DNA from: Minisyncoccota bacterium | GTDB lineage: Bacteria; Patescibacteriota; Minisyncoccia; Phycocordibacterales; UBA9973 | DNA: 64,000 bases | Assembly: GCA_031413715.1 (NCBI GenBank) | Contig: JANOFO010000007.1 | Span: forward strand, 90,338 to 154,337 | Direction of reading: 5' to 3' | In this document: positions 18,623-47,586 of the stretch, piece after piece | Position numbering within the stretch: position 1 is the stretch's first letter | Layout of the letters: every line of letters starts with the position of its first letter | The notes under the pieces: model-generated | What the model was told of the DNA's origin: nothing | What the model saw: only the letters and a program-made list of their open reading frames with translations | Database searches by the model: none | Made by a program: the position numbers and the translations under genes

Positions 18623-18697
18623 GGCCCTATCGTCTAACGGTTAGGACATCGGCTTTTCAAGCCGGTAATCCGGGTTCGATTCCCGGTAGGGTCACCA
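18623..18697 (+). tRNA. tRNA-Glu (anticodon TTC), CCA encoded
   Basis: GGCCCTATCGTCTAACGGTTAGGACATCGGCTTTTCAAGCCGGTAATCCGGGTTCGATTCCCGGTAGGGTCACCA with anticodon loop TTTTCAA. Confidence 0.85.
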
Positions 18698-20309
18698 AAC
18701 GATTCACTTCATCCATAAATTCAGGTTCTATGTTGTAAACACAACATAATTCAGGAGTTTTAATAGTTGGATAGTGATAATAGAGATTGGAAGGAAAAAG
18801 TAGGGTTCTTAAAACTCTAAGGTCTTTCACATAGATGTCTTCCCAAATTTCAGGAAGATGCTTTAGAAATTCAACCCCTGTATCAACAACCCTATCTATT
18901 TCAAGTTCAGGAGAGGACAACTCACTCAAATCTTTTTGTAATTGCAATATTTCTATTTTGCACTTTTCATTTGCTGGTAAAAAGTCTTCATCTGATATCT
19001 TTGTTTCAAGTCTTAGATTTAGCAACTTATCTTTCTTGTCTCTTATTTCTGCAATCCTCATGTTAATTTTCTTTTCCGAGGTAGTAATAGAATTCAATTC
19101 ATTTTTATGAGCAAGTTTAATTGCCTCTTTGAGAACATCAAAGTGCTTATCATCAGGGGTCATCTTTGTAAGAAATTCAGTAAACTCTTCTTCCATATCT
19201 TTCTTTGGTATAGCAGTCCTCTTAGGACAATCACCACAAAAACAGCCATAATACTGGTAGTACTTGGTTTTACCTTTTGTCTTTCCTCCAGAGATACTCT
19301 TGCCACAACCACTGCATTTTATACCCCGCAGGGGATAGTCAGGACTATCCCTATTACGAGCTAACTTTCTTCCAGCCACACCTCTTTTATTACCACTACC
19401 ATTAGCTTCATTAAAGAGTTCAACAGAAATTATTGGTTTATGGCTACCTTCAACATCAACACCAAATTTTTGAACCACAATTCTGCCACAGTAAATTGGG
19501 TTTTTAAGGATTTTAGCGACTAGTTGCTTGCTTATTTTCATACCATGCCTACTTTTTTGTCCGCACTTATTTGCCAATCCTGCCAATTCCTTACAACTAT
19601 ATTTTCCCGTGATATGCTTCTCAAAAATCATTTTTATCACTGGTGCTCTTTCTGAGTGAGGAATAATAATTTTGTTGCCTAATTTATCTTTTGTATTTAC
19701 ATATCCCCAAGGAGCACCATTAGGCCATAAACCTTTGAGTGCTCTTGCTTTCATTCCTTCACCAGTTCTTTGAGACCTGACATCATTATCAAACTGAGCA
19801 AAGGCAGCCAGCATTGTTTCTTGCAATTTACCGCTAGGACTATCATCAAAAGCCTCTGTTACAGAAACTAAAGAGATATTTAATTTTTTAAGAAAGCTTC
19901 TAAATGCAAGATGTTCACCAGCGTTTCTGAAAAATCTATCAACTTTGTATATGACAACTCTGTCAATTTGTTTTTTGTTCTTATCACAGAACCTCAGCAT
20001 TTCCTGAAATCTTGTTCTGTTTTCCGTCTTCGCACTCTCTCCCTCTTCTCTAAATACTTTTAAGACAGTATGTTCAGTTCTTTTAGAGAATTCTCTGGAG
20101 AACTTTTCTTGATTGTCTAAGCTAAAATTCTCAACTTGTTCTTTTGATGACACACGCACATAGATGACATCATTTTTAGGTTTTTCTATTTTAGGTTTTA
20201 TTTTCATAAATTTGTTATTAGTTAATTTAAACTCTTTTCCCAAAAATCTCAAAATGTTTGTTCTGGAATTAAAGAGCTTATTGTTCTTGTAATTTGGTTT
20301 GCACGGCAA
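18657..20309 (-). CDS. large serine recombinase (integrase)
   Basis: VIYVRVSSKEQ catalytic-Ser motif, a recombinase domain, a zinc ribbon CSGCGK...YYGCFCGDCPK and a C-terminal coiled coil. The likely true start is the ATG at 20207 (MKIKPK...). The 3' end overlaps tRNA-Glu. Confidence 0.9.
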   Translation of the reverse strand: MPCKPNYKNNKLFNSRTNILRFLGKEFKLTNNKFMKIKPKIEKPKNDVIYVRVSSKEQVENFSLDNQEKFSREFSKRTEHTVLKVFREEGESAKTENRTRFQEMLRFCDKNKKQIDRVVIYKVDRFFRNAGEHLAFRSFLKKLNISLVSVTEAFDDSPSGKLQETMLAAFAQFDNDVRSQRTGEGMKARALKGLWPNGAPWGYVNTKDKLGNKIIIPHSERAPVIKMIFEKHITGKYSCKELAGLANKCGQKSRHGMKISKQLVAKILKNPIYCGRIVVQKFGVDVEGSHKPIISVELFNEANGSGNKRGVAGRKLARNRDSPDYPLRGIKCSGCGKSISGGKTKGKTKYYQYYGCFCGDCPKRTAIPKKDMEEEFTEFLTKMTPDDKHFDVLKEAIKLAHKNELNSITTSEKKINMRIAEIRDKKDKLLNLRLETKISDEDFLPANEKCKIEILQLQKDLSELSSPELEIDRVVDTGVEFLKHLPEIWEDIYVKDLRVLRTLLFPSNLYYHYPTIKTPELCCVYNIEPEFMDEVNRLVTLPGIEPGLPA

Positions 20310-20319
20310 ATAGCCACAT

Positions 20320-20526
20320 TTATGGGGAATTACCTGCTGACGCTAGTAAATCCTCCGCATTCTGTGGTTTTGGTGGTTTAAAGTGCTGTTTAATCTGTAG
20401 CCTGACGAGGAATAAAGCCAGTTCATATAGATTTTTGGCAGTTTTCTCTAAATCCTGTTCTGGAACTTTTGAATTGATTCTTTTCAGGTGTTCTATTATT
20501 TTTTGGACTTCTTCTGTGTTAAACAT
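20320..20526 (-). CDS. small hypothetical protein immediately upstream of the recombinase (candidate accessory or directionality factor)
   Basis: 68-aa ORF on the same strand, 11 bp from the recombinase track start; no motif recognised. Confidence 0.3.
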   Translation of the reverse strand: MFNTEEVQKIIEHLKRINSKVPEQDLEKTAKNLYELALFLVRLQIKQHFKPPKPQNAEDLLASAGNSP

Positions 20527-20598
20527 AAAAAATCCCCTGTTGGGGACTTCTTGAAGTCTATACTTTGAGTTTCTTTTAAGGTCCTAACTCATCCTAAT

Positions 20599-21327
20599 TC
20601 AGTAGTTTCTAAACACTGCTGGTTCTTGTTGGCGAAACAAGGATTGATTTATACCTTTTATTTTTAACTTCCTATTCAAATTAGCTACCAAATTTGAAAT
20701 TGATTTTTTCTCCCTCCCTCCCATTTTAGTATATTCATCTTTTTCACCTTTAATTGTTTCCCAGATATCACCATAGCTAACAGGTATTTTAGGTTTTGGT
20801 TTAAACATGATTTCACAGAAATAAGAATAATTTGTATTTGGATAAATCTTTAATTTTCTTTTACCAATAATAATTTCATTGTTTATATAATATGACTTTA
20901 GGTTAGATTTATAAATGCCTATATTTAATAATGTTTCAGTTTTTTTTAAAAATAATTTCCAGTTATATATTTCCAAAATCAATGAATCTTCATCATCTTC
21001 CAAGTAAACTCCTGAAACAGGGTTGATATCTTCTTTGGTCTGGGATACAATTTCATCCCCAATTTTAGTAATTGTTCCATTTAGAATATTTATCCATATT
21101 GACTCAGGATTAACTTCCCCTATATTCTGGTTTAGATATTGAATAAAATGCCTTGCCTCAGCTTTATTAATAGAAGATTCTTTTAGAGTATCAAAAGGTA
21201 TTTTCACTACCAAAGGCTCTTGTGTTGGAAATAGTACAGACTGTTCTTGAATCATTTTAAGCAACAGAGCTATTTGCTCTTCTTGGTGTAGGGTCAAGCT
21301 ATTTTCTTTCATACTTAAATAATACAT
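20599..21327 (-). CDS. hypothetical protein (element cargo)
   Basis: 242-aa ORF in AT-rich cargo; no motif recognised. Confidence 0.4.
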   Translation of the reverse strand: MYYLSMKENSLTLHQEEQIALLLKMIQEQSVLFPTQEPLVVKIPFDTLKESSINKAEARHFIQYLNQNIGEVNPESIWINILNGTITKIGDEIVSQTKEDINPVSGVYLEDDEDSLILEIYNWKLFLKKTETLLNIGIYKSNLKSYYINNEIIIGKRKLKIYPNTNYSYFCEIMFKPKPKIPVSYGDIWETIKGEKDEYTKMGGREKKSISNLVANLNRKLKIKGINQSLFRQQEPAVFRNY

Positions 21328-21589
21328 ACAAAAAGCAATAAAACAAAGCTTCTTTGATTTTTAGGTAAATAGAGGTAAAATGAAAGCATAATTTAATATA
21401 TAAAGTAGCCTAAACCTTTAGAAATAGAGGCATGGTGAAAAAACCAGTCAAGCATAAAGAACCTATCATATAGGGTTGCCTTGACTGGTCATATCTGGAA
21501 ACGGATATGGGGAGCGAAAGCTCTCACCTATGTGGTAGGCTTTTTGCGTCTTACCATGGGCTTATTATTAAAACGCAGAAAGAATCTTT

Positions 21590-22201
21590 ATGAAAAAATA
21601 TATTACAATTTTATTTTTAGCAGTATTAATAACCCCTTCAATTACTTTTGCTTCTTGGTGGAATCCTTTTTCTTGGTCAAAAGATTCCAAACAAGCTATA
21701 GATGTTATTGAGCCAACATTAATTCAAGCAACTGATAAATCCACCTCAGTAATTGAAACAAAACCTAAAGAAATTAAAGTTATTGAAAAAATAGTAGAGA
21801 AGCCAGTTATTCAGACTATTTCAGTTCAAGACCCTGCTTTACAGAAACGGATTAAACAACTGGAGTTAGAAAACCAAGAACTTAAATTACAGATAGAAAA
21901 ACTAAAGGCTTTACAACAACAAGTGCAAACACAAAAAGAAGAGATTGAATCATTAAAAAGTGTACCAGTCTTTTCAAAAGATAAAGAATGTGAGGAAGCA
22001 AAAGAATTCATTAATTCTACTGGTGAAAAAGTAACTGATTTAAGAGAACGGCAAGCAAAGGAAATTGCTGATTATATGAAGAACGGAATAAAATTGCAAA
22101 AAGACATAGACGCAATAAAAAATAAGTACCGTACAGAAGGAAGCCAAATTGACAAAAAAATCAAATCAGCTAAAGATAAAATTCAACTTTATTGTGATTA
22201 G
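21590..22201 (+). CDS. secreted coiled-coil protein
   Basis: Signal peptide MKKYITILFLAVLITPSITFASW, then a charged, Gln/Lys/Glu-rich coiled-coil-like region. Confidence 0.5.
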   Translation: MKKYITILFLAVLITPSITFASWWNPFSWSKDSKQAIDVIEPTLIQATDKSTSVIETKPKEIKVIEKIVEKPVIQTISVQDPALQKRIKQLELENQELKLQIEKLKALQQQVQTQKEEIESLKSVPVFSKDKECEEAKEFINSTGEKVTDLRERQAKEIADYMKNGIKLQKDIDAIKNKYRTEGSQIDKKIKSAKDKIQLYCD

Positions 22202-22235
22202 AAACTGTTGATTCTATCTAATTCTATCTACTTTT

Positions 22236-22552
22236 AAAAGACCCCTGAAAAGTGTTAAATAAACCAAATTAACCTAATTTAAAAAGACCTCAAAAAGTGT
22301 GTATTAAGCAAATTAAGCGAAATCTTTTTTGCTACTAAAACTTGGTATATATACCTAAATTAACCTAATTCTAGGATATTCCTCTAAACTGCTTATTTTA
22401 CAAATTTACCAAAATCATTTCTGGTCTCTAAAAGTGGTATTTATAGCAAATATAGCAAATCTCTTTTTGGGTCTGAAAAGTGTTAATTATATCAGTCTAA
22501 TCAGAATTTCTCTGGTGTCCAAAACTGCGAATTATATCAAAAGTATCAAACC
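22236..22552. repeat. about six degenerate direct repeats, 45 to 50 bp period, iteron-like
   Basis: Units share a core GGTCTnnAAAAGTGnTAnnTATAnC, for example gacccctgaaaagtgttaaataaacc, ggtctctaaaagtggtatttatagc, ggtctgaaaagtgttaattatatc and ggtgtccaaaactgcgaattatatc. They lie directly upstream of the CDS starting at 22590. Confidence 0.5.
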
Positions 22553-22589
22553 TTAAATTGGACTTTTAAATAGGCTTTATTGGTGTATA

Positions 22590-24107
22590 ATGCAAATTAT
22601 GTCTTCATACATTAAATCAATAAAAATTACTGAATTTGAAGGAGCTTTAGACCAGACTCTGGAATTTGAAGCGGGCTTAAATATCTTGAGCGGAGAAAAT
22701 GGAACTGGTAAAACAACGGTATTAAAGAAAATTAAAGAATTTGCAGGAGGTAATAATAGCAATTTAACTTTACTTTCTGACATTTCAGATATAACACTAC
22801 CAAACCAACTCAGTATTTACGCTCTTAGCCCAAAGAGAAATTCAGAAAAGAAGACTATAAATAATACTTTTTCACATCTCCGTTCTATAAGCAAAACGAT
22901 GGATACGCAGCTTGAGGAATTAAGAAATAGAGCAATTAACGATAATACTTTTGAAGCATATCCATCATTTGGAGAGTTATTTATTTTATATTTTGATGAA
23001 AAATGCAAAGACGGTGGAGAGCAAATTGGAAAGATGAATGAGGTAACTACTGAATTTAATAATCTTATACAAAAGGTTTTTCCTGAGTACTCCTTTGTTT
23101 CAAGTTGGGATTCCGTGTCTGGAAGACCAGATATAAACCTTAAAATCAGCAACCGCTCTCCCCTTAGTTTAGATAAATTAAGTTGTGGACAACAGGAAGT
23201 TCTGTCTTTGATATTTAACATTTATACTTCAAAGGGAAAATATAATATCTATTTAATTGATGAGCCTGAAATACATTTAAACTGGAACTTAGAAAAAGGA
23301 TTATTCCAATTTTTGGATTGGTTCTGTGTAAATCACAATAAGCAAATTATTACAGTTACTCACTCACGTACTATCTTTGAAGAACCATTTTATGAAAAGG
23401 CGAAGTTTTTGGTTTGGGAAGATGTAGTTATAAAATATCAAAGTGATATTTCTGATGCTCAGCGTGAAGCTATTGTAGGAGAATTAGCAGCAACCATAAA
23501 TGTTGTTGCTCCTACTTCTAAGACTTTCTTTGTTGAAGATAAAATGCATGAATTTGTTATTGATACTATTGCTCAAAAGCTAGGTAAAGTAATCTCAACA
23601 GTTAAGTGTGGAAACTCTGCAAATGTAAAAAGTTTCTATGGACTATCAAAAGATAAAAGTAGTGCTTGGAAAGAACATGGCTATTATGTTGTTGATGGAG
23701 ACAATGAGGGTAATCCTTTTCCAGGAGAACCAAGGTTTATCCACTTAAATAAATATTCCATTGATTCATATATATTTAACTTAGAGTTGCTTTCTGAGGT
23801 TCTAAATAAGACAGTTGAAGTTATACAAACAGAGATATTGTCTGTAATGCAGACAAAGAAATTAGCTATTTTTTCAAAAGGTAAAAATGCAAAATTTGGA
23901 CATGCATTGATAGACAAAATGACAAGCGATTACATAACAGAAGCACATTTGGCACTTGTAGATTGCACAGAAATTTTAGAAGGCTTTGCTCAATTACAAG
24001 GTAAATCATCGCAAGACTTGTTTGTAGAATATATTGAAAAGGCAAATCAAAAAGGAACATTGAATAGTATTTTTGACTCAGAACTTATTGACGTAATAAA
24101 TGCTTAA
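22590..24107 (+). CDS. OLD-family / PARIS-like ABC ATPase fused to a TOPRIM-like (DUF4435-like) C-terminal domain
   Basis: Walker A LSGENGTGKTT, ABC signature-like LSCGQQ, Walker B/D-loop IYLIDEPEIHLN and H-loop ITVTHS. The C-terminal FFVEDKMHEF...YVVDGDNEG fits a TOPRIM Glu followed by a DxD motif. Confidence 0.6.
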   Translation: MQIMSSYIKSIKITEFEGALDQTLEFEAGLNILSGENGTGKTTVLKKIKEFAGGNNSNLTLLSDISDITLPNQLSIYALSPKRNSEKKTINNTFSHLRSISKTMDTQLEELRNRAINDNTFEAYPSFGELFILYFDEKCKDGGEQIGKMNEVTTEFNNLIQKVFPEYSFVSSWDSVSGRPDINLKISNRSPLSLDKLSCGQQEVLSLIFNIYTSKGKYNIYLIDEPEIHLNWNLEKGLFQFLDWFCVNHNKQIITVTHSRTIFEEPFYEKAKFLVWEDVVIKYQSDISDAQREAIVGELAATINVVAPTSKTFFVEDKMHEFVIDTIAQKLGKVISTVKCGNSANVKSFYGLSKDKSSAWKEHGYYVVDGDNEGNPFPGEPRFIHLNKYSIDSYIFNLELLSEVLNKTVEVIQTEILSVMQTKKLAIFSKGKNAKFGHALIDKMTSDYITEAHLALVDCTEILEGFAQLQGKSSQDLFVEYIEKANQKGTLNSIFDSELIDVINA

Positions 24108-24158
24108 GGATGAATTCTCTAGATGTTTCTTTATGTAAAATTATGGTAAAATACAAAG

Positions 24159-24872
24159 ATGGAAACAGCAAGCCCTATTATAGTGGTTAGTACAGCAATT
24201 CTTACAAGCTTTTTTACATATTTTTTTACTTTCAATCAATACATAAAACAACGGCAAAGAGAAGAAGTAAGAAAAACATATATTGAAGATGGTATAGGTA
24301 GAGTAATGCAAGTCACAGAATCAGTTTCTCAGGCTTGTTATTTTAACTTTACAAAAGTAATTAGTGCACTAGATATTCTAGAAAGAAATTTTGGAGGGAA
24401 AGAGATTGAAAAAGAAATTTTAAATAATATTTTTCTGGAAATGCAAGATGTAAAAGTTGCCCCAGATTATGGAAATCTAAAATTGGCAATTTTTGATAAC
24501 CAAACCCTTATTATATGGGTAATTCAATCTTGGGCAGAATATCAAAAACTAAACGAATATCTAAGGCATTATATATTTCAAGAATTTAAAGCATACTTAA
24601 ATGATTCAACTTTATCCGAAGATAAGAGAAAAGAATTTTTGATTAAATTGAGAGAACAAGTTCGCAATCATTGGAACAGAGTAATTAACAACAATGAAAT
24701 ATTAAGGGGTCAGTTATTGTTACTACAAGTTGAAGCTGATAAAGCAAATATTTCAAATATTCAGGAGATAGATAACCTAGCAAAGAAAGAAGGGGTTTTA
24801 AAAGTTTTAAAAGCCATAGAAGATGGATATAAAAAAATTAAAGATAATCCAGTAGATATTACAACACTTTAA
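24159..24872 (+). CDS. hypothetical membrane-anchored protein downstream of the ATPase
   Basis: 237-aa ORF with an N-terminal TM helix, 52 bp after the ATPase stop on the same strand. Confidence 0.4.
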   Translation: METASPIIVVSTAILTSFFTYFFTFNQYIKQRQREEVRKTYIEDGIGRVMQVTESVSQACYFNFTKVISALDILERNFGGKEIEKEILNNIFLEMQDVKVAPDYGNLKLAIFDNQTLIIWVIQSWAEYQKLNEYLRHYIFQEFKAYLNDSTLSEDKRKEFLIKLREQVRNHWNRVINNNEILRGQLLLLQVEADKANISNIQEIDNLAKKEGVLKVLKAIEDGYKKIKDNPVDITTL

Positions 24873-25036
24873 AATTCAACTTCTAATTCCTAACATTTAA
24901 ATACCATTAAGGGAAGAGACTGGAAGTAGTTCTTGTTGGATAACCCTGTAATTTAAAGGTTTTTCAAAGTTAGAGATTATCTTTTCCAGCTCCTTAAAGA
25001 AGTTTACATAGGGTTTTGAGTCTGGTATCATTAAGG

Positions 25037-25085
25037 TCACACATACTTAAAAATCTGCACTGCTGCAGGTTTTTAAGTATGTGTG
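25037..25085. terminator. perfect 17-bp-stem hairpin between convergent genes
   Basis: tcacacatacttaaaaa ... tttttaagtatgtgtga around a 15-nt loop containing ctgcag palindromes. Confidence 0.4.
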
Positions 25086-25254
25086 AAAACGCAGGTATAA
25101 TTTTTCAGAAGAAAAATTGCCGAGTTGGGGTCGCGAGTACTTACGTAGAATTTGAGCAAAGCGAAAATTATACTTAGTAACTTGTGACCACATAGATTAG
25201 TACCTGTAAGGTTCGATAAGCGTACTCGCGGTCCCCATAGCTCACAAAGAAATT

Positions 25255-26732: not shown

Positions 26733-27236
26733 ATGACACCTGCAACAACTCCAGCTACAACAACTGGAACACCTACTCATCATGCAGCAGTACCTGCAAC
26801 CCCTGACAAAAAAAGTTATGGAGGCCTTGTGCTACTAATGGTAGTAATTGTAATTTTAATTATTATTTTACAATCAATACCTGGTAAAAAAACGACCAGG
26901 AGAGATACTCTGAAAAAACAACTTACTACTGTAGTACAACAAACATTTGATACCTATCCCCCAATTGATCCTCAAACCTTTGAGATCAATGGATCATTTT
27001 CAGAAAAGAAAATAATCCGGGACGGATATTATGTATCATTTGTATGTAATCAGCCGTATCAGATACGGAAAAGTAATGATAAATTAGTGGAAAGCGAAGC
27101 AAATAAATCTGCAAACATTGGTCTGTATAAGGCCGAGGAATCAATCGAAAATTCGCTTCTTGAATTCCGCACATTAAATGATGCGACCACAACAATGACA
27201 CTCATTTTCACACCGATGAAAATCAAAAAACACTAA
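26733..27236 (+). CDS. hypothetical membrane protein (Thr/Pro-rich N-terminus, one TM)
   Basis: MTPATTPATTTGTPTHH..., then the hydrophobic helix LVLLMVVIVILIIIL. Confidence 0.4.
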   Translation: MTPATTPATTTGTPTHHAAVPATPDKKSYGGLVLLMVVIVILIIILQSIPGKKTTRRDTLKKQLTTVVQQTFDTYPPIDPQTFEINGSFSEKKIIRDGYYVSFVCNQPYQIRKSNDKLVESEANKSANIGLYKAEESIENSLLEFRTLNDATTTMTLIFTPMKIKKH

Positions 27237-27241: not shown

Positions 27242-28111
27242 ATGAAAAAATTAGCCAAAGAGATAGTTTTCCATAAATGGAGTAACTATCTGACAGCAGT
27301 TTTGATATCATTCCTGCTGTTTATAATCCTGTACTTCGTCCTGTACGGAAGGATACAGAGTAAAATTGAAACAACTCATATAGTAGATCTCGTAGCTTTC
27401 TTTGGACTCCTTGCTGTAAGCATTGGAGCAGTATATGGATCAAAGCTAATTTCTCCACCGAGGAGAAAGAGGCATCTCATTGACATTTTCGGTGAAGAAA
27501 CTGAAGTGTGGATCACCGGAACAACCCGGTTCGGCTTTTATCTTTTCCATTTCGATATTGGTAGCCAGACAATTAGTGTTGAAGAAGATGAAATAATCGT
27601 TACCACTATTTGCGCCGATAGAAAAGGCAAACTAATAGAGATGAGATTAAGCGGCGTATGGAGAGTAGGTAAACATAACTGGCAAATGACTAACTTCAAA
27701 AAATTAGATGAGAATAGACAAGAGAATGAAGTAATTTTCAGTAACATGCTTGACAGAGCCAATGTTAGGCTGGGAGGAAGGAAAGAATTCTGGTCTCAGA
27801 TTCATGGAAAAGATTTACACAAGAGTATCCTCAACGATCCTATTTTCGTGGAGGATAAAAATGACTACGGCATAGAATTCCCATCACTATCATTGACTGT
27901 CAAATCAGCCGATCAAGCTACCGACAATTTCAACGCTCAGTATGATCGTGAGCTGGCGAAGTATATGTCCAAATACCCAATAGGTTACAAATTTACTCAC
28001 AAAGAATTAAAAGAAGCGAGTGATTTGATATTTGCTAAATTGGGTCGAGCTAAAATGCTTATTGTCAGAGGCGGAGCTATCGTACGAACTGATGCTGATG
28101 CATTGATGTAA
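27242..28111 (+). CDS. hypothetical membrane protein
   Basis: 289-aa ORF with two N-terminal TM helices; a 5-bp gap after the upstream ORF suggests an operon. Confidence 0.4.
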   Translation: MKKLAKEIVFHKWSNYLTAVLISFLLFIILYFVLYGRIQSKIETTHIVDLVAFFGLLAVSIGAVYGSKLISPPRRKRHLIDIFGEETEVWITGTTRFGFYLFHFDIGSQTISVEEDEIIVTTICADRKGKLIEMRLSGVWRVGKHNWQMTNFKKLDENRQENEVIFSNMLDRANVRLGGRKEFWSQIHGKDLHKSILNDPIFVEDKNDYGIEFPSLSLTVKSADQATDNFNAQYDRELAKYMSKYPIGYKFTHKELKEASDLIFAKLGRAKMLIVRGGAIVRTDADALM

Positions 28112-28186: not shown

Positions 28187-29374
28187 TTATTTTTTATATT
28201 GTATAGCAATCCAATAATCGAAATTGCCTGTTACCGGTGGAGATTGGGTATAATATTGTTCTTCAAGAGAAAGCGCGCCCGCGTCATAGAGCGTAGAAGT
28301 ACTGGTAAGGCCTTTCAGCCTTGCAATCTCAATAAGAGCATTTCTTATAGCTTTTCCACGAGCTTTGCTGAGATCTTTGTCTACTCCCGAGTCCACTACA
28401 CGCCAGTACGTGGAATCAGATACATAGCTGTTAACGAGTGGGTTCGGCTTTGTACTTCGATCAGCTGGAGTTGGAAGTACTTCCGGCGCAGTAACTTCAG
28501 CCAGATTACAGTCATTGACAGTACCAGCGCCCAAGGGTCCTCGGACATCCCACCAGACATAGTAGAGCTTGGTTGATGGATCGTACATAGTCTTCCTATC
28601 ATAGACATGAGGATAGTCTAGACGGTCAGCAGGCGCAATACCGCTTGCTGCTATATATTTGGCTCTGGCATCAGCTCGTATGATTTGAAGGGCTTTATAC
28701 TCAGTACTATCACTTGCTGTGACTACTGCCTGCCAGCAAACTGTTGGTTTTTGTATATAGACCTTTGTAAATGGATTTGTTGTATACGTGCTAGCCGGCA
28801 ACTGTGGTGTGCTAGGAGCAATCCCTGGGGTCTGTGTAAGCGAACCACTAGATGTGAATATATCTTGGCCGGTGTTAGGTGAATTAGGAACATTGGTAGT
28901 GGGAGGAGTGGTGCCATCAACAGTATAGTCCCCGCTATTTTTGTTTATCTTAATATTCTTTACACCCAAGGTATCCAAGATTATATTCATAATCCCAAAT
29001 ACTGCCACCATAATAAAGAGTCCGATCACTCCCCAGAGCATATGAGATTTGCTTTTCTTCCGGATTTCCTCGCTATTGGGCGAAAGAAAGTACTGAGCTA
29101 CTCCATAAAGAAAGTAGGTCAAGGCACATGCAAAGAGAAAGAGAATAATCGGGTTGATGATAACCCTATTGATACTCATCATAAGCGTTTTCACGCTTGC
29201 CTCTGCAACCGGAATGAACTGGAAATCCATAAAGTTCCCTATTATATTATGGACAGAGTATGCCAGCAGATGGGATAGGGACACATGGTATATCACTCTG
29301 ATTGACTCTCGCACCTGTAACACCAAATGTACTTTGGAAGACTGCAATGATACCCCAGAAAGCCAAGATGACAA
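28187..29374 (-). CDS. pilin-like (TrbC/VirB2-like two-helix module) protein with a Thr/Pro-rich extracellular region; paralog 1
   Basis: N-terminal module ...ILFLFACALTYFLYGVAQYFLSPNSEEIRKKSKSHMLWGVIGLFIMVAVFG... is shared with four neighbours. The likely true start is the ATG at 29182 or 29179, because the track start overlaps the upstream paralog. Confidence 0.5.
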   Translation of the reverse strand: MSSWLSGVSLQSSKVHLVLQVRESIRVIYHVSLSHLLAYSVHNIIGNFMDFQFIPVAEASVKTLMMSINRVIINPIILFLFACALTYFLYGVAQYFLSPNSEEIRKKSKSHMLWGVIGLFIMVAVFGIMNIILDTLGVKNIKINKNSGDYTVDGTTPPTTNVPNSPNTGQDIFTSSGSLTQTPGIAPSTPQLPASTYTTNPFTKVYIQKPTVCWQAVVTASDSTEYKALQIIRADARAKYIAASGIAPADRLDYPHVYDRKTMYDPSTKLYYVWWDVRGPLGAGTVNDCNLAEVTAPEVLPTPADRSTKPNPLVNSYVSDSTYWRVVDSGVDKDLSKARGKAIRNALIEIARLKGLTSTSTLYDAGALSLEEQYYTQSPPVTGNFDYWIAIQYKK

Positions 29375-29615
29375 AGAGTCCGATAAGACCCTGGATGATC
29401 ATGCCGCGGGCTTTCTTTTTTTTCTCCTCATCGGTTGAAAGAGTGTATTGTATGACACCCCAGATAAAATAGACGACGGCAAGAGTAATGAGTACAGGAA
29501 TTATTCTGTTTAGAATATTAGCTGTAGTACTGATAATATCGAAAAATGTTACCGCTGAAACACTGAGTGGGGCTATGACAGCTGTTATAGCACCGATTGA
29601 AATGAATTTCTTCAT
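29247..29615 (-). CDS. pilin-like two-helix module protein; paralog 2
   Basis: ...IIPVLITLAVVYFIWGVIQYTLSTDEEKKKKARGMIIQGLIGLFVILAFWG... Confidence 0.5.
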   Translation of the reverse strand: MKKFISIGAITAVIAPLSVSAVTFFDIISTTANILNRIIPVLITLAVVYFIWGVIQYTLSTDEEKKKKARGMIIQGLIGLFVILAFWGIIAVFQSTFGVTGARVNQSDIPCVPIPSAGILCP

Positions 29616-29741
29616 GATAAATTATCTATAATAATAACGACTTTTTAATAATATTCATTGAACCCGCGACCGCAGGCAATGATAGGAACACACTGTTTTA
29701 CATGATTATTATATCACAAATGAGCCCTAAATTAGCAAGCT

Positions 29742-30038
29742 TTACTGAGAAAGCTGTGGAATAAGAGTTTTGATGCCAAAGGTGCTCGTAAGAACACCGA
29801 CCAGCCCCCAAATACTTATCATGACAAATAAGGCTATCAACCCCCAGATCATAAAACTCTTGCCTTTCTTGCGCTTTTCTTCATTGTCAGGATTCAGGAA
29901 ATACTGGATAATCCCCCATATGAATCCGGCAACGGCAAGCGTCAAAAGAAGAGGGATTATTGATTGGACGAGCGTACAGCTGGCCCAGTTGAAGATATTA
30001 CCCAAGGTGTTTAAATCAATTGTTTGGCAGTCTTTCAT
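29742..30038 (-). CDS. pilin-like two-helix module protein; paralog 3
   Basis: ...IIPLLLTLAVAGFIWGIIQYFLNPDNEEKRKKGKSFMIWGLIALFVMISIWG... Confidence 0.5.
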   Translation of the reverse strand: MKDCQTIDLNTLGNIFNWASCTLVQSIIPLLLTLAVAGFIWGIIQYFLNPDNEEKRKKGKSFMIWGLIALFVMISIWGLVGVLTSTFGIKTLIPQLSQ

Positions 30039-30044
30039 AATATA

Positions 30045-30830
30045 TTACGTCGTGCTTTTAATTTCGTCGACCGTTCCTTTAATAGCGTCTGCTACCACAA
30101 AAGCACCAAGCAAAAGAGCTGCGCCGATGAGAGTATAAAGGAGGGCTTGTTTTGCTTTCTTGAGTTTCTCGGAATTGCCGGCAGCGGTTACAAAAAGAAA
30201 ACCACAGTAAATAATGGCGAGTGCCACAATCGGTATTCCGATAAGAAGGACGAAATCAATTATAGCTCTTATAAAAGAAGGAATGTCCTGAAGATTCGGG
30301 CCTAGAGGATTCTTGATGCCGGAGTTTATCTTAACATCAGTACCATTTCCAGGAGGGATGGTACCATTATCTGGTGGAATAGTGCCGTTGTTTGGAGGAA
30401 TTGTGCCATTACCAGTTGTAGCTCCAGCTGTACGAGCATATCTAAACGGTACTTTTTCTGGATTAATTGAAACAACTCCATTAATGTATGGAAACGCTTG
30501 AACTTCAAGATCGTACGACCCTGGATCAAGAGTGATAGTTTTTTTAGTTACTGCTTGTTTAGGATCCATATCGCCAAATACAATTGTCTGGACCTTTTTT
30601 CCTCCTGTTGATGTATATAGATCGCCCATTACATTGTATTTAGTAGAAGCTACATTGGTAAGCGTAATAGTGAGTGTAGTCTTATCCGCTTTATAACTCA
30701 TAATGACAGGGCTCGCTGCAAGAACTATATTTGCAATGAATAATGAACCAGTAACAATAAATACAAAACTATGTCTCGCTATTATTGAAAGTAGACGATA
30801 TTTATTTTTTCTAAGTATATTCATATGCAC
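30045..30830 (-). CDS. secreted protein with NGTIPP repeats and a C-terminal pilin-like two-helix module; paralog 4
   Basis: Signal peptide, GNGTIPPNNGTIPPDNGTIPPGNGT repeats, and C-terminal ...IPIVALAIIYCGFLFVTAAGNSEKLKKAKQALLYTLIGAALLLGAFVV. Confidence 0.5.
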   Translation of the reverse strand: MHMNILRKNKYRLLSIIARHSFVFIVTGSLFIANIVLAASPVIMSYKADKTTLTITLTNVASTKYNVMGDLYTSTGGKKVQTIVFGDMDPKQAVTKKTITLDPGSYDLEVQAFPYINGVVSINPEKVPFRYARTAGATTGNGTIPPNNGTIPPDNGTIPPGNGTDVKINSGIKNPLGPNLQDIPSFIRAIIDFVLLIGIPIVALAIIYCGFLFVTAAGNSEKLKKAKQALLYTLIGAALLLGAFVVADAIKGTVDEIKSTT

Positions 30831-30861
30831 ATTATAACACTTATTATTTAATAGTAGTCAC

Positions 30862-31347
30862 TTAACAATCAGGTATTTCATTGCCAAGCCAATTTAAACA
30901 AGGATCGGCATTCACGATAGAAAAAATCGTATGTATTATGAGCCATGCGGCTAACGCTATGATAAAGCCAAAAATTGCATGCATAATCATCTTTTTGGCT
31001 TTGGAGCGACTTTCAGAATTACCTCCTGAAGTAATCAATTGAAATCCAGCATAGACTAGTATGAGAGCTACAAGTACCGGTGCTATAACGAAAATTAGAA
31101 AATCGATAACGTTATTTATCAGTCCCATGAGGAATCCAAAGTCACACTGCTTCGCGACCACACTCTCCATGACTGGTTCCCCTTTTTCAAGGACAGGTTT
31201 ACCCGTCGAATCAACCTTGGGTACTTGGATAACCTTGCCACACTCGGGAACCAAGCCCGCGGCATGAGCTATACCTAGTGGCACAATCGGGCTAATGATA
31301 AGGACAAGCCCAACGATATATCCGAGCAATTTTTTATTGAAAGACAT
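30862..31347 (-). CDS. secreted protein with a C-terminal pilin-like two-helix module; paralog 5
   Basis: Signal peptide, and C-terminal ...IAPVLVALILVYAGFQLITSGGNSESRSKAKKMIMHAIFGFIIALAAWLII. Confidence 0.5.
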   Translation of the reverse strand: MSFNKKLLGYIVGLVLIISPIVPLGIAHAAGLVPECGKVIQVPKVDSTGKPVLEKGEPVMESVVAKQCDFGFLMGLINNVIDFLIFVIAPVLVALILVYAGFQLITSGGNSESRSKAKKMIMHAIFGFIIALAAWLIIHTIFSIVNADPCLNWLGNEIPDC

Positions 31348-31348: not shown

Positions 31349-32659
31349 TTATTTCTTAATTATGGAATCCAATTGGTTACTTGCTTTACCTAATGCATCT
31401 TCTACTGAAAGCTTGTTAGACACGATGTTATCTAAGAGCTCTCCAAATATTTCATCACTTCCCTTTGGATCCGGATCAAGCCACGCTCGAGAAATAATAG
31501 CAGAGTTAAAGAATGTAAAAAGATAAGGATCAGTAGGCTTGGTAGAGAGAAGCGCACGTGATGCTGGTGGAAGAGAGACTGCGGCTGCCAGATTCTTGGC
31601 TGTATCCCCTGCACTCAGAAGTGTAGCCACACCGAAATCTCCCGCAAGGTTGGCAGACTTCTTGTTAACCGCCACCGCATATATAGTACCATAGGTACGT
31701 TTGGTATTGGTGCCTCGGGTTTGCAGCACATCTGTGACATCAAAACTAAGATTTGGATTAACTGATTCTATCTTGAACAATTCGCTTGCATGACCAAGAT
31801 ACATTGCAAGCCTACCTCCGGTAAACATATCAGTAGAATTCGGGAGCGCCCTGCTCCATGAATAGGCGGCATCTGATGGGTTAGAGAATTTTATGAAAAA
31901 CTCAAAGATCTGTTCTGTAGGTGAAATTGGAAGCGAGGCGTTATTTCCGTTAAGTACTGACGAGTACGAGCCATTGCTTCCTAGGGCAACAATCTGATTG
32001 TTGCTTTGTAGAAGAAGCGTAGCGAGTATGTCTTTGACGTTTGTTATATTCTCGTATCGCCCGAGGGCTATAGCGCTCTGTAGTACAGTACCATCATCTT
32101 TCTTTTTTGTGAGTTTGGAAACAAAATTAAAGAGCTCATCCCAATATGCTGGCGGAGAGACGATGCCCTCATTGGAAAGAATGTCCTTATTGTAGTAAAG
32201 TACTACAGGATCAACAACAACTGGAAAGCCTATCAATCCGTCTTTTCCTAAATAAATATTTGCTCCATCAATATACGTATCGCGAAATGTTTTCTCTGGA
32301 TAGCTCGCATAAGGAATATTATAAATGAAATCTTTGTTTTTTAGAATCATATCCGGAGTTATAAAGAAAAGATCAGGACCCGTGCCAGAGGCAAACGCTT
32401 CAATCAGGTTTTGTTGGTATGTAGAAAGTGGTTTTTTGACATAGCTCACATTCAAATCCCTGTTGGTTCCTACCATATCAGAGAACACCTTATTGAGTTC
32501 TGAACTGCTATCAAACGTCCCCCAGATTACAACCTTACCCGAAAGAGTAGTGCTTGTACTCGACGATCCTCCGATTTTTAAAATTCCGGAAAATATCATA
32601 ACTGCAAATACAAAGAAGGCTAAAAAGATTGCGACCACGATTGTCTGAAAGTTATTCAT
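31349..32659 (-). CDS. extracellular solute-binding protein (ABC transporter family-1-like), orphan
   Basis: N-terminal TM/signal anchor and ...KVVIWGTFDSS...GPDLFFITPDMI..., typical of the sugar-type SBP fold. No permease or ATPase genes are adjacent. Confidence 0.65.
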   Translation of the reverse strand: MNNFQTIVVAIFLAFFVFAVMIFSGILKIGGSSSTSTTLSGKVVIWGTFDSSSELNKVFSDMVGTNRDLNVSYVKKPLSTYQQNLIEAFASGTGPDLFFITPDMILKNKDFIYNIPYASYPEKTFRDTYIDGANIYLGKDGLIGFPVVVDPVVLYYNKDILSNEGIVSPPAYWDELFNFVSKLTKKKDDGTVLQSAIALGRYENITNVKDILATLLLQSNNQIVALGSNGSYSSVLNGNNASLPISPTEQIFEFFIKFSNPSDAAYSWSRALPNSTDMFTGGRLAMYLGHASELFKIESVNPNLSFDVTDVLQTRGTNTKRTYGTIYAVAVNKKSANLAGDFGVATLLSAGDTAKNLAAAVSLPPASRALLSTKPTDPYLFTFFNSAIISRAWLDPDPKGSDEIFGELLDNIVSNKLSVEDALGKASNQLDSIIKK

Positions 32660-33179
32660 GCATTAAAATTATACCATACTGATGAGCCGAGGCAGAAATG
32701 TTTTCGAGATATTTGAACCCTCGACGTGTAAACAATTCCTTGGCCTCTAATTCTTTTACGACATACATTCTAGCTGGACCCATGCCACTGAAAGATTCCT
32801 TCCAGTCAACAACAAGCACTTTACCACCGGGTTTCAGTACTCTTTTTACTTCATCTACTAGACCAAGTTTATCTGATGCCGAAAAAAGGACATTAGAAAC
32901 AATGACTCTGTCTATACTATGCTCTTTCAATTTGGTGCCTCCTTCACATTCTATATCACCCCAAATAACATCGACATTCGTTATTCCTAATTCTTTCAGT
33001 TCAGCATCCAATTTTTTGAGCATGTCTTTCTGGATTTCTATTGCATATACTCGGCCTGTCGTTCCCACTTTAAGAGATGCTTCTTTTGTATAAAATCCAG
33101 TTCCTGCCCCAAAGTCAGCAACACGCATACCTTCCATAAGTCCAAGCGCGGCGACATTTTGTTTAGGATTTGCAAACAT
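32652..33179 (-). CDS. class I SAM-dependent methyltransferase
   Basis: RVADFGAGTGFYT motif I and an acidic motif II ...VYAIEIQ. Confidence 0.7.
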   Translation of the reverse strand: MFANPKQNVAALGLMEGMRVADFGAGTGFYTKEASLKVGTTGRVYAIEIQKDMLKKLDAELKELGITNVDVIWGDIECEGGTKLKEHSIDRVIVSNVLFSASDKLGLVDEVKRVLKPGGKVLVVDWKESFSGMGPARMYVVKELEAKELFTRRGFKYLENISASAHQYGIILMHE

Positions 33180-38675: not shown

Positions 38676-39167
38676 GTGAATAAAAGAACACAACAAAAAG
38701 GTTTTACTCTCATAGAGCTACTAGTAGTAATCTCTATTATTAGCCTTTTGTCTAGTATAGTCCTCGCAGCTTTAAACTCTGCTAGGTCAAAGGGTCGCGA
38801 TGCTGTCAGATATCAAACTGCAAACCAGATAAAAACTGCGTTGGAGCTGTACTTTACCAATTACGGCTATTACCCAGTCTGTGGAGGAAACGTTCATTGC
38901 ACTACGGTAGGAACATATAGTGCTCTCAGTACGCTTGCAGTAGTGCCTACATATATATCAAGTATCAAAGACGATCCAATAAATGCCAACGGCTATGGAT
39001 ACTTTTATGGTAGAGGATATATAAAAACAGGAACTAATTCATTCTTATATACAGGAGCCGAAACAGACTATATTTTTGGCATGAGACTCGAAAATAGCTC
39101 TGCTCCCACTTATAGCGGCTGGACTAACCCTAATCTAAATTACCTCGACAGCAATAGAAATCAGTAA
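38676..39167 (+). CDS. type IV pilin / pseudopilin with a prepilin-type N-terminal cleavage/methylation domain
   Basis: MNKRTQQKGFTLIELLVVISIISLLSSIVLAAL has the class III signal GFTLIELLVV. Confidence 0.8.
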   Translation: MNKRTQQKGFTLIELLVVISIISLLSSIVLAALNSARSKGRDAVRYQTANQIKTALELYFTNYGYYPVCGGNVHCTTVGTYSALSTLAVVPTYISSIKDDPINANGYGYFYGRGYIKTGTNSFLYTGAETDYIFGMRLENSSAPTYSGWTNPNLNYLDSNRNQ

Positions 39168-45050: not shown

Positions 45051-45125
45051 TCCGGAGTAGCTCAGCGGTAGAGCAAGCGACTGTTAATCGCTTGGTCGCA
45101 GGTTCGATCCCTGCCTCCGGAGCCA
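45051..45125 (+). tRNA. tRNA-Asn (anticodon GTT), CCA encoded
   Basis: TCCGGAGTAGCTCAGCGGTAGAGCAAGCGACTGTTAATCGCTTGGTCGCAGGTTCGATCCCTGCCTCCGGAGCCA with anticodon loop CTGTTAA. Confidence 0.85.
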
Positions 45126-46727
45126 GATAGGATTAACATCAGCGAAAGCTGGTGTTTTTCCTTTATTGACGGGCTCTTTTGGCGGTTCGAAACTCTTTTT
45201 TTCGTCTACTTTTTCTCCCAACATCTGCATTACGCGGTCAGAGACCATTTTAAAGGCTTTGTGGTATGAAATCTCAACTTTCTTGCCATTTATCGTCGAG
45301 TTCGAAAATAAAAGGGACATAAGCAACTTCTTGTCGTCGACCATCTCGATACTGCTTCGGTTTACATAAATCTTTCGCGCTTCCTTTGCCATTTGTAGAA
45401 AGGTCGATCCCATATCGTAGTACTTGAGGTTGGCATTCTTATGCTTATTGAGGCTATCCATCACTTCCTCCTGCTCGATCTTGTACTGCTCATACTTTTT
45501 CTGATAGAAATCCTCGCTTATTTTGCCGTCGATCTTGTCGTCGTATATCTTGTCCAATCTCTGCGTGGCTACTTGGTAGCGTCGCTCGAGCTCGCCGGTG
45601 GCCTTTTCTCTGAATTCTATTTCCTCGCCGTGGCTTTCCTTGAGAGCTGTTTGGACCCAGCCAAGCATGTTTTCTATTGCCTCATCGTGCCTGGAGCTTA
45701 GTTGCTCAATATTCTCCATTACCTGCAAATCAACATTTTCCTGTTTGACCCATTCTCGCTGGGAACAGTTTTTATAATGGTTACAGTGGCCATACCAGTG
45801 GCCTTTCTGTATCTCCCACGTCACCTTTCCTTTGCATTCGTCACAGCGGAAGACATTTTTAAAAAGCGAATTATGCTTATTGTGTTTCGGCGTGCCGTTG
45901 CTATGCATAATGTCTTGGCACCGCATAAATAATTCTTTGGTGATCAATGGCTCATGTTCACCTTTACCGACCTTACCATTCCAACGATTCATTCCATAAT
46001 AAAACGGATCGCCGAGAAGCTGATGGACTCGCGAGTGACTCACTTTGTTTCCTCCTCGAGATCGCATGCCGAGCTTATACATTTCTTCGGCCAGTCTTTT
46101 TGTTGAGCTTACGTTTGTAGCATAGAGATCAAACATTTTCTTAACCAGTGGTGATTTTTCTTCGTCTAGCACATGAATTTTATGTCCTTTCTCGCCGATG
46201 GTTTTATATCCGAGCGGAGGCTTGCTCGGTAGCCAACCTTGAGCAAGTTTTTCTTTCTGTCCTTTCTTTACGTTTTCGGAAAGGAGTCGGATGTAGTATT
46301 CGGCCGTTGCTACTTTCACTCGCCACATAAACCATTCGTGCGACTTGGAGTCCTTGTGGAGAGTACATCCTTCTTTGACTAGATGGATCGTATGCTTTTC
46401 ATCGGCCAGTATCCACTCGTCGATTATCGGCACATCGGCAAAGTTACGGGTTAAGCGGTCAGTCGTTTCCACGAAGATCGTGTTGATCTTGGACTTGGTT
46501 ACATATTCCAACATTTCGTGAAATATCTTTCGCTGGATTTTTCCAGCGGCCGACTCTTGAATGGCAAAAACTTTTACGAGCTCAAAGCCGTTCCGGTCAG
46601 CATAATCTCGCAAAAGTTTCTCTTGAGCCGGAAGCGAATAGCCGGTGTCCTCCTGATCCTTGGAAGACACCCGGGCATAGCCTACGGCCTGCATCGATTG
46701 ATTTTCTTGATTCATTATCATAATCAT
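45084..46727 (-). CDS. large serine recombinase (integrase)
   Basis: AVGYARVSSKDQ catalytic motif, a recombinase domain, a zinc ribbon CDECKGK...HCNHYKNC and a coiled coil. The C-terminal 14 codons are antisense to the tRNA-Asn 3' half. Confidence 0.9.
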   Translation of the reverse strand: MIMIMNQENQSMQAVGYARVSSKDQEDTGYSLPAQEKLLRDYADRNGFELVKVFAIQESAAGKIQRKIFHEMLEYVTKSKINTIFVETTDRLTRNFADVPIIDEWILADEKHTIHLVKEGCTLHKDSKSHEWFMWRVKVATAEYYIRLLSENVKKGQKEKLAQGWLPSKPPLGYKTIGEKGHKIHVLDEEKSPLVKKMFDLYATNVSSTKRLAEEMYKLGMRSRGGNKVSHSRVHQLLGDPFYYGMNRWNGKVGKGEHEPLITKELFMRCQDIMHSNGTPKHNKHNSLFKNVFRCDECKGKVTWEIQKGHWYGHCNHYKNCSQREWVKQENVDLQVMENIEQLSSRHDEAIENMLGWVQTALKESHGEEIEFREKATGELERRYQVATQRLDKIYDDKIDGKISEDFYQKKYEQYKIEQEEVMDSLNKHKNANLKYYDMGSTFLQMAKEARKIYVNRSSIEMVDDKKLLMSLLFSNSTINGKKVEISYHKAFKMVSDRVMQMLGEKVDEKKSFEPPKEPVNKGKTPAFADVNPIWLRRQGSNLRPSD

Positions 46728-46826
46728 TTAGTTAATAATTTTGTTGGTTCGAATGCGACTTTTCGTACCACGACACACCCTATACTAATTTTTCGGACAC
46801 GCTAAGCTCGAGTTGCCCACAATCGG

Positions 46827-47435
46827 TTATTCTCCGTCTGCAAGCCACTTTTTTATTATCGCGGCTTTCGCATCGGGATATTGATTGCGTGCGAGTGCCA
46901 GTTGCATTTCATAAGGAATAAACTCCCAGCGTTCGCCTGGAGACATCTCGCTAAAGTTGATCTTATTAAGTTGAAGAGTTTCTTTCGGATGACCCTCCAC
47001 ACGATCCAGTAGTTCCTTGATAGCGGACAGCTTCACGCCATCGTTCTGGCTTCCCATAAGAGCGACGAGCATTTCGTTGGCCAAACGAAAGTTTTGCTCA
47101 CGAACACGTACACCGGCTTTTCGGACAATGTCCACGGTTTCCTGATGGATCGCATCCATTTCCTGTTCGTACAGCTCGTAGGTTTCCCGTAGCGTTCCCG
47201 ATTGCCTGAACCAGTCTTTGACGGTTTGCTCGGTGAATTTGGCTTTTCTACTTTTTTCAAACCGATGATTGATATCCTCGGCGATGTTTTGGTAGGAATG
47301 CCCTTTATATTTCAGCTCGAGTGCTCGCTCGTGGTATTTGGTTATGTGTTTAAGCTTGGCCATAAAAGTGGAGTTTAGTGGAGTCTTTTCTTGCTCTCGA
47401 TTGGGATGATGAGGAGCGGTCTTCCGGTTGTCCAC
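46827..47435 (-). CDS. hypothetical protein (phage-like cargo)
   Basis: 202-aa ORF; no motif recognised. Confidence 0.4.
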   Translation of the reverse strand: MDNRKTAPHHPNREQEKTPLNSTFMAKLKHITKYHERALELKYKGHSYQNIAEDINHRFEKSRKAKFTEQTVKDWFRQSGTLRETYELYEQEMDAIHQETVDIVRKAGVRVREQNFRLANEMLVALMGSQNDGVKLSAIKELLDRVEGHPKETLQLNKINFSEMSPGERWEFIPYEMQLALARNQYPDAKAAIIKKWLADGE

Positions 47436-47581: not shown

Positions 47582-47586
47582 GGATT

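Follow-up and report, generated by a model that had tools for sequence, protein, structure and literature searches.

A solute-binding protein gene heads a conserved array of five T4SS_pilin-family genes in Paceibacteria

In this study, we describe five consecutive minus-strand genes at positions 28187-31347 of a 64,000-nucleotide stretch from the genome of an ultra-small Minisyncoccota bacterium (Patescibacteria, class Paceibacteria; GenBank assembly GCA_031413715.1, contig JANOFO010000007.1, positions 90,338 to 154,337). We refer to this whole stretch as the window, and number it as in the first-pass annotation that had been made from its letters alone. The encoded proteins belong to T4SS_pilin (PF18895), a pilin family of type IV secretion systems (T4SS), their genes stand directly downstream of a gene for a solute-binding protein (SBP), and this arrangement is kept in related genomes. 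With slightly better than even confidence, we read the five proteins as differentiated subunits of a surface filament or sheath that a distally encoded T4SS would assemble for contact with a host. The near-obligate linkage to the SBP gene is explained by none of the models weighed below, and is the most interesting point of the locus.

Five hairpin proteins in a fixed gene order

The labels p1, p2, p3, p4 and E follow the gene order after the upstream SBP gene. Product lengths, in amino acids (aa), are supported by independent gene calls on an identical metagenome contig.

30862..31347, minus strand: p1, 161 aa; signal peptide, short Cys-containing ectodomain and C-terminal hairpin of the 'GGNSE..KAK' subfamily
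30045..30824, minus strand: p2, 259 aa from the ATG, with an alternative GTG start at 30830; signal peptide, probably beta-rich ectodomain of ~100 aa, NGT repeats and C-terminal hairpin
29742..30038, minus strand: p3, 98 aa; bare hairpin with an N-terminal Cys pair (C4, C21)
29247..29615, minus strand: p4, 122 aa; canonical layout, with a signal peptide ahead of the two-helix hairpin and a Cys-Cys loop (C111, C121) at the C-terminus
28187..29230, minus strand: E, 347 aa from the ATG at 29230; conserved N-terminus (..IPVAEAS..), hairpin, Thr/Pro linker and folded C-terminal ectodomain

For gene E, the first-pass annotation had used a 395-aa open reading frame (ORF) starting at a TTG; this frame overlaps the neighbouring gene, and the ATG at 29230 is the true start. 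Its observation that five minus-strand genes have a two-helix module in common holds at these positions, as the five proteins align over ~70 aa (alignment A1) that comprise two hydrophobic helices and a short charged loop. Two sub-groups can be told apart: p1 and p2, with a 'GGNSE..KAK' loop and the module at the C-terminus, and p3, p4 and E, with the signature 'FIWG.IQY..S.DEEKKK' and the module near the N-terminus. The conserved loops read N-S-E-K-x-K-K-A-K or D-E-E-K-K-K, and the two sub-groups are homologous to each other according to hhalign (probability 96%, E 3.7e-9). Identity is low throughout, at 22-44% to the first sequence within alignment A1, and at 24-51% between paralogs by BLAST.

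All five proteins match PF18895, and four exceed its gathering score of 26.6 bits (p1 40.2, p2 28.5, p3 42.8 and p4 38.5 bits). E stays under it at 20.5 bits; several of its orthologues carry a precomputed PF18895 match, and its BLAST alignment with p3 (41% identity, E 3e-20) shows that it is homologous to p3 and p4. AlphaFold2 (AF2) models place a helical hairpin in both p4 and E, as the PF18895 layout requires. For p4, a helix at residues 3-14 precedes the hairpin 24-59/63-97, at a confidence (pLDDT, predicted local distance difference test) of 77.5; for E, the hairpin spans 12-49/54-87, with an overall pLDDT of 80.7 and values above 90 in the C-terminal domain. Membership of the T4SS_pilin family is established, and NCBI names several close homologues 'pilin'. 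With five such genes in a row, the locus is an array in the published sense, i.e. at least two PF18895/VirB2-like genes in tandem in a Patescibacteria genome. A holin identity, which the first-pass annotation had listed beside absence from relatives as an outcome that would speak against pilins, is rejected: none of the five proteins matches a holin family at E 0.01 or better in a PHROGs scan, and the array is chromosomal, syntenic between gyrA and ftsZ, and outside any prophage. Nor are the genes missing from relatives.

On the contrary, a scan of one genome per species returned 80 loci, from Nomurabacteria, Lloydbacteria, Vogelbacteria, Campbellbacteria, UBA2163 and others; homologues of the array proteins bear the labels Patescibacteria, Paceibacterota or Nomurabacteria. 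With ORFs assigned to array positions by typing with hidden Markov models, 54 of the 80 loci have the exact order p1-p2-p3-p4-E, and the number of pilin genes per locus ranges from 4 to 9. In 73 of the 74 loci that could be evaluated for this, an SBP gene immediately precedes the first pilin gene (median gap 2 nt), and gyrA lies upstream in 69 loci. Four metagenome or genome contigs with E homologues that are 35-49% identical (L003, L005, L006 and L007) show the same gene order, and the common order runs S1 protein, metallo-beta-lactamase-fold gene, gyrA, methyltransferase, SBP, pilins, E, two convergent genes, and further on ftsZ, ftsA and priA. Each of the five genes is closer to the same-position genes of other genomes (36-79% identity) than to its own neighbours (24-51%), which argues that they are ancient, non-interchangeable subunits. 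The first-pass description of a diversified paralog family calls for refinement; judged from these comparisons, the genes are better described as five ancient, position-specific orthologous groups that would encode differentiated subunits, and not as recent duplicates.

As a separate observation, loci of the Lloydbacteria type (L066-L069, L075, L079, L080, L083 and L084) have an enlarged SBP-led array of 8-9 pilin genes, in which the p2 and p3 types are duplicated and a further pilin gene follows E. Some of these expanded arrays are interrupted by unrelated genes, e.g. one for a fused protein resembling a major facilitator superfamily transporter and spermidine synthase in L079.

Conservation is not evenly spread over the proteins. 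Across species, the hairpin modules are 46-53% identical, compared with 28-29% over the aligned part of the p1 and p2 ectodomains, which are 40-592 aa long. The long versions carry IPT/TIG, fn3 or DUF5018 immunoglobulin (Ig)-like modules, always with the pilin hairpin at the extreme C-terminus. The best matches of p1 are same-position genes of relatives (37-52% identity), with orthologues up to 702 aa in total length and ectodomains built of IPT/TIG, fn3-like or DUF5018 modules. Orthologues of p2 are 59-65% identical over the module and variable in their N-terminal part. Same-position orthologues of p3 (alignment A2) are 69-79% identical. With 57-64% same-position identity, p4 is among the best conserved of the five as well; it has 429 homologue clusters, of which the 119 closest listed are 54-69% identical. 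For E, there are 85 other homologue clusters, and a same-position identity of 36-49%.

The first-pass annotation had put the module at the C-terminus of two paralogs, after a signal peptide and an extracellular domain, which is true of p1 and p2, and at the N-terminus of three short proteins, which needs amending: in p4 a signal peptide precedes the module, and E is not short. In E, the hairpin is followed by a disordered, Thr/Pro-rich linker of ~50 aa (about residues 100-150) and by a folded domain of ~200 aa with two beta-alpha-beta-beta units. Only 38 representatives of this domain are present among 1.84 billion protein clusters, always C-terminal and in 1-5 tandem copies; it is confined to the sub-clade of the window, E being ~105 aa long in most other lineages, and a fold search with it returned no informative structural neighbour. 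At the other end of E, residues 1-12 (29197-29230) form an N-terminus, M.F..IPVAEAS, that is nearly invariant across 45 homologues and is no signal peptide, which hints that the protein is processed or recognised at a site immediately ahead of the first helix.

The Asn-rich segment that had been noted in the gene at 30045-30824 can be made precise as three consecutive NGTIPPx heptads and a fourth NGT, the NGT triplets standing at residues 139, 146, 153 and 160 of p2. Residues 139-162 thereby contain four N-x-T sequons in a predicted extracellular linker. Orthologues of p2 have unrelated low-complexity repeats at this position (GDTGPK, TPDTTTTG), and such segments may be glycosylated or serve as extensible spacers. 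Cys pairs are confined to the parts of the proteins that are predicted to be extracellular, which fits a topology with both termini outside and the Lys/Arg-rich loop inside.

The solute-binding protein and a conserved p4 leader

The genes that adjoin the array on either side are as follows.

32652..33179, minus strand: S-adenosylmethionine-dependent methyltransferase, 175 aa (Pfam Methyltransf_31/11/25); its 3' end overlaps the start of the SBP gene by 8 nt
31349..32659, minus strand: SBP, 436 aa; opens the conserved SBP-pilin unit, directly upstream of p1
27242-28111, plus strand: X1, 289 aa, N-terminal transmembrane (TM) segments; convergent with the array
26733-27236, plus strand: X2, 167 aa, one TM segment; convergent with the array

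The SBP is a distant MalE-like protein of the carbohydrate-binding type, with an N-terminal TM anchor and no lipobox. In Pfam it matches SBP_bac_8 (66.8 bits) and SBP_bac_1 (53.9 bits), with weak MalE/GanS matches in NCBIfam. Its PDB matches are maltose-binding proteins (MBPs); the two strongest (1e-11) are receptor fusion constructs that contain MBP, and full-length sugar-binding SBPs follow at ~E 1e-5 to 6e-7. Among its homologue clusters, the 119 closest that were listed share 58-72% identity with it; all of these are close relatives, and no distant SBP homologue near virB4 came up among them. The gap between SBP and p1 is 1-2 nt. Family scans found no ATP-binding cassette (ABC) transporter permease or ATPase gene (BPD_transp, ABC_tran) beside the SBP gene or elsewhere in the window. 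The solute-binding protein that the first-pass annotation saw next to the array is confirmed, and within the window it is an orphan. The operon of relatives likewise consists of gyrA, methyltransferase, SBP and pilins, the methyltransferase standing between gyrA and SBP in the same four contigs L003, L005, L006 and L007. X1 and X2 have no Pfam, NCBIfam or PHROGs match; homologues of both lie downstream of the array in several relatives, so that they are semi-conserved and may be accessory components.

The spacer between p3 and p4, with 126 nt (29616-29741), is the only sizeable gap within the array. It contains the following elements, all of which are read on the minus strand.

29708..29738, minus strand: internal promoter, with the extended -10 TGATATAAT (29708-29716) and the -35-like TTGCTA (29733-29738)
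29656..29681, minus strand: leader stem-loop in the 5' leader of p4, core 29662-29677 (GCCTG-cggtcg-CGGGT)
29635-29653, minus strand: single-stranded motif ATTATTA..AGTCGTT, following the stem-loop in the p4 leader

Both promoter and hairpin are conserved. An alignment of the spacers shows the motif TGnTA[TC]A[AC]T in 55 of 68 relatives, and GTCG is invariant in the loop of the hairpin. A stem of at least 5 bp forms around this GTCG in 34 of 55 spacers, compared with a mean of 11.5 and a maximum of 21 after shuffling. Furthermore, 74% of the cells are paired, against 66.3% in shuffles, and the covariation score of the stem is 0.355 against 0.237; neither value was reached in any of 500 shuffles (0/500 each), and double changes occur at all 6 pairs. 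The hairpin has no match in Rfam, and a covariance model of it found no second significant copy in the window. The p4 leader is AU-rich, with no Shine-Dalgarno sequence before the p4 start. The spacer may hold an undescribed cis-regulatory RNA element of Paceibacteria pilin operons, or a protein-binding site. A dedicated promoter ahead of the well-conserved, bare p4 is as would be expected of a major structural subunit. Ranking with the best conserved members of the array and possessing a conserved promoter and leader hairpin of its own, p4 is likely the major, highly expressed subunit, and we regard it as the candidate for that role.

Filament, display platform or uptake device

Tandem arrays of divergent VirB2-like pilins are, as a kind, already described in Patescibacteria, and in Southlakia epibionticum such genes are essential and lie within the T4SS cluster (PMC10633639, PMC12102498, PMC12857230). 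Wang et al. 2023 reported this series of essential predicted pilins (PMC10633639), and a survey of 3,035 Patescibacteria genomes by Quinonero-Coronel et al. 2025, made with the profiles of PF04956, PF18895 and CONJScan, found 441 arrays of 2-11 VirB2-like genes in 383 assemblies, with members that are on average 25% and at most 54% identical, and located pilins near virB4 in 1,135 of 1,948 assemblies (PMC12102498). Among the secreted-protein genes of cultured Paceibacteria, those for T4SS pilins also rank with the most highly expressed (PMC10936435). The present array has the PF18895/VirB2-like family, the phylum and the presumed host-interaction role in common with these arrays (e.g. the S. 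epibionticum ML1 cluster SEML1_0006-0019), and it has the same tandem layout of divergent genes, at 22-51% identity here. It differs from them in belonging to Paceibacteria, in being led by an SBP gene, in its five fixed orthologous positions and distance from virB4, and in carrying ectodomain fusions, of which PMC12102498 makes no mention. This fixed, SBP-led order of five genes, distal from virB4 and equipped with ectodomain fusions, a promoter and a leader hairpin, appears to be undescribed.

How the array relates to a T4SS can be followed in the Nomurabacteria genome GW2011_GWD2_36_14 (GCA_000991405.1; our locus L060). Table S3 of the 2025 survey lists for it a VirB3 (gene 683), a VirB4 (gene 686) and a PF18895 pilin (gene 688) (PMC12102498); its five-gene SBP-led array, at LBRL01000001.1, 229753-250886, is not in that table. 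In this clade, then, a T4SS core that has a pilin of its own exists beside a separate SBP-led pilin operon. The PF18895 rows available from Table S3 are all flagged as near virB4 (PMC12102498), which suggests that, as far as these rows go, the survey recorded PF18895 only in virB4 neighbourhoods, and that distal arrays of Paceibacteria are probably under-counted in it.

In the filament reading that we favour, each protein would be a two-TM hairpin, with the Lys/Arg- and Glu-rich loop predicted to face the cytoplasm or the fibre lumen, and both termini pointing outward. The bulk of the fibre would be made of p4, with its putatively disulfide-looped tail, as the major subunit, with p3 as a second bare subunit that is perhaps part of it. 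In p1, p2 and E, the hairpin would serve as anchor or polymerisation module, by which the hypervariable extracellular domains are displayed: Ig-like modules in other species, and the lineage-specific beta-alpha-beta-beta domain in E. These three would likely be minor, host-contact subunits. A T4SS of the virB3/virB4 type, encoded elsewhere in the genome, would pull the subunits from the membrane and build a surface filament or sheath, by which this epibiotic bacterium would make contact with its host cell. The first-pass annotation had likewise proposed a surface or adhesion apparatus; this is plausible because orthologues carry Ig-like ectodomains, and it is on this ground that we infer it.

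A considerable number of results weigh against a T4SS-built filament. To begin with the proteins, p3 and E lack the signal peptide that p1, p2 and p4 have; p3 does so because its ORF cannot extend upstream, and several p3 orthologues do have one. The TrbC/VirB2-like pilin identity given in the first-pass annotation is borne out by PF18895 and by the names of homologues, and much less by the TrbC/VirB2 family proper. Against PF04956 (gathering score 27.9 bits), p2 and p1 reach sub-threshold scores of 19.2 and 17.8 bits, and p3, p4 and E have no match at E 0.1 or better. Compared by hhalign with an alignment of 8 annotated VirB2/TrbC proteins (A7; its seed VirB2 sequence is 99.2% identical to annotated virB2 genes), the p1/p2 profile (A3) gives a weak match over 66 columns with both helices in register (probability 21.5%, E 0.001), and the p3/p4 profile (A6) gives no signal; nor was there any signal by hhalign against the single Agrobacterium VirB2 sequence. 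In sequence searches of the PDB, the p3/p4 (A2) and p1/p2 (A3) profiles returned designed or unrelated membrane helices or nothing, and no pilin, and fold searches do not set conjugative pilins apart from other helical hairpins. Homology to classical VirB2 is no more than plausible. With the TrbC/VirB2 pilins of the diderm MPF-T systems (PF04956; e.g. Agrobacterium VirB2), the proteins share a small size and the layout of a leader, two hydrophobic helices and a short loop. In contrast to these, the loop is longer and Glu/Lys-rich, some members have no leader or have large ectodomains, virB1, virB3 and virB4 are not adjacent, and the organism is probably monoderm. A further likeness is to the Mbov_0395 family pilin-like conjugal transfer protein of Mycoplasma integrative and conjugative elements (NF045849), since all five proteins match nearly the full 80-position model. 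At 27.5, 28.3, 34.0, 23.1 and 26.7 bits, all scores are below the cut-off of 40 bits, and the Mycoplasma protein is encoded by a lone gene that is part of a conjugation module, unlike this chromosomal five-gene array. The T4SS class of these wall-less monoderms, MPF-FATA, is reported to be the sister of the patescibacterial VirB4 clade (PMC12102498).

The surroundings of the array point in the same direction. As the first-pass annotation stated for the vicinity, there is no VirB4 or VirD4 gene, and this extends to the whole 64-kb window, scanned over every ORF of at least 500 aa and most smaller ones, which has no VirB6 or VirB3 gene either. Within 10 kb of the array, no virB4-like gene was found in any of the 80 related loci, where the only large Walker-A protein cluster is ClpB. 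Since a relative's T4SS core has its own adjacent PF18895 pilin, the array need not be a T4SS substrate. The five array-bearing genomes listed in Table S1, L060 among them, are all VirB4-positive (PMC12102498); as VirB4 is present in about 80% of all Patescibacteria genomes, this co-occurrence is uninformative, being compatible with T4SS dependence and no evidence for it. No pilus of a patescibacterial T4SS has been observed, a 2025 review calling it an 'intriguing possibility'. Finally, a pilus model leaves the tight coupling to the SBP gene unexplained.

An alternative is a surface-display complex independent of any T4SS, which we hold to be unlikely, though less so than the other rivals. 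Here, the hairpins would remain embedded in the cytoplasmic membrane, serving there as anchors or as modules for oligomerisation, and would form no filament, and the hetero-oligomer would present the ectodomains of p1, p2 and E, and hold the co-expressed SBP at the surface. This would agree with an array that is always distal from virB4 while the T4SS core has its own pilin, with an SBP that is membrane-anchored and whose gene is packed against p1, with hairpins at the extreme C-terminus of large Ig-domain proteins, where they resemble membrane anchors, and with fold and sequence tests that point to no specific conjugative pilin. However, a simple anchor does not need five conserved, differentiated hairpin paralogs. 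The bare p3 and p4 would be needless, yet they are among the best conserved, and one of them has its own promoter. Moreover, in other parts of the phylum this family occurs in association with virB4.

More speculative, and quite improbable in our estimation, is that the SBP-led operon encodes an apparatus distinct from the T4SS pilus, for which the pilin beside virB4 would serve: a heteromeric fibre or conduit of one abundant and four specialised subunits, to which the anchored sugar-binding protein would dock to sense or capture host carbohydrate, and whose production would be regulated by a factor that binds the GTCG-loop leader hairpin. If true, this would be a new SBP-coupled device for tapping the host, in a clade that is unable to make its own building blocks.

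We give slightly less credit still to a nutrient-capture or uptake device, in which the SBP would pass host carbohydrate to a hairpin-built conduit, either a pilus lumen or a membrane pore, that stands in for the missing ABC permease and ATPase. The adjacency of SBP and array is near-universal (73/74), the SBP is strongly conserved with no permease or ATPase gene in the window, and reviews speculatively assign the T4SS and pilus of Patescibacteria a role in uptake from the host. This operon, however, has no energising component, transport from an SBP to a pilin has no precedent, and the SBP could use an ABC transporter that is encoded elsewhere; the adjacency of gyrA and the methyltransferase shows that, in such tiny genomes, genes in conserved synteny need not share a function.

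The least credible alternative, by a wide measure improbable, holds that these are recently expanded paralogs whose alternative expression would serve to vary antigens or host range, a role proposed for the tandem arrays of divergent VirB2-like genes in the host-associated Bartonella and Anaplasma, which are read as variants of one subunit (PMC12102498): low identity between array members, ectodomains that are hypervariable between species, and a published suggestion for patescibacterial arrays (PMC12102498) speak for it, but recent duplication is largely ruled out by positional orthology across ~75 species, each copy being an ancient orthologous group with an architecture of its own and closer to its counterparts than to its neighbours, and the genes stand close together in a single operon-like unit, neither recombination repeats nor silent cassettes were seen, and the variation lies between the ectodomains of different species and not among interchangeable copies.

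The wider window and significance for Paceibacteria

The window is chromosomal, as the presence of gyrA, bipA, priA, ftsA, ftsZ, mreB, hisS, def, fmt, pth and lepB indicates. Beside the array, a stretch of low GC content (0.31-0.32, compared with about 0.41) extends over ~18650-25200. At its start, a serine recombinase gene (18657-20309) overlaps tRNA-Glu and stands beside tRNA-Val and tRNA-Ser; the stretch also holds an AAA_15/ABC-like ATPase gene (22590-24107) and several ORFs without a family. Since syntenic relatives lack it, the block probably represents an integrated element, at whose flanks no direct repeats were detected. A mobile-element origin of the array itself is ruled out, the array lying in conserved chromosomal synteny and the adjacent low-GC island being absent from relatives. 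A second island, at 45051-56386 beside tRNA-Asn, is a defence island with the following genes.

45084-46727: serine recombinase
49733-51042: AbiEi/AbiEii toxin-antitoxin pair
51199-52917: N6/N4 DNA methylase
52923-55199: ResIII helicase
55202-56386: Shedu SduA nuclease

Next to it, 56644-59013 encodes a 789-aa protein with four Pur_ac_phosph_N/fn3-like repeats and two C-terminal PG_binding_1 domains. Surface proteins of this kind, with peptidoglycan-binding domains, are reported to be highly expressed in Paceibacteria that parasitise archaea (PMC10936435). A lone prepilin-type gene (N_methyl, type IV pilin/pseudopilin) at 38676-39167, between the S1 protein and pth genes, belongs to another pilus system than the T4SS_pilin array.

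It is an open question by what means Patescibacteria, to which a large part of bacterial diversity belongs, attach to their hosts and feed on them. The T4SS and its pilins are essential in the single species for which this was tested, and the present locus leaves that picture unchanged. What it adds is a defined, testable unit for the largest class, Paceibacteria: five differentiated subunits in a fixed set, hypervariable, host-facing domains on three of them, a near-obligately linked SBP, and a conserved promoter with an RNA hairpin ahead of the probable major subunit. The locus also shows that surveys confined to the surroundings of virB4 overlook an important pilin locus. For the few co-cultures of Paceibacteria with their hosts, the ectodomains of p1, p2 and E are candidate determinants of host specificity.

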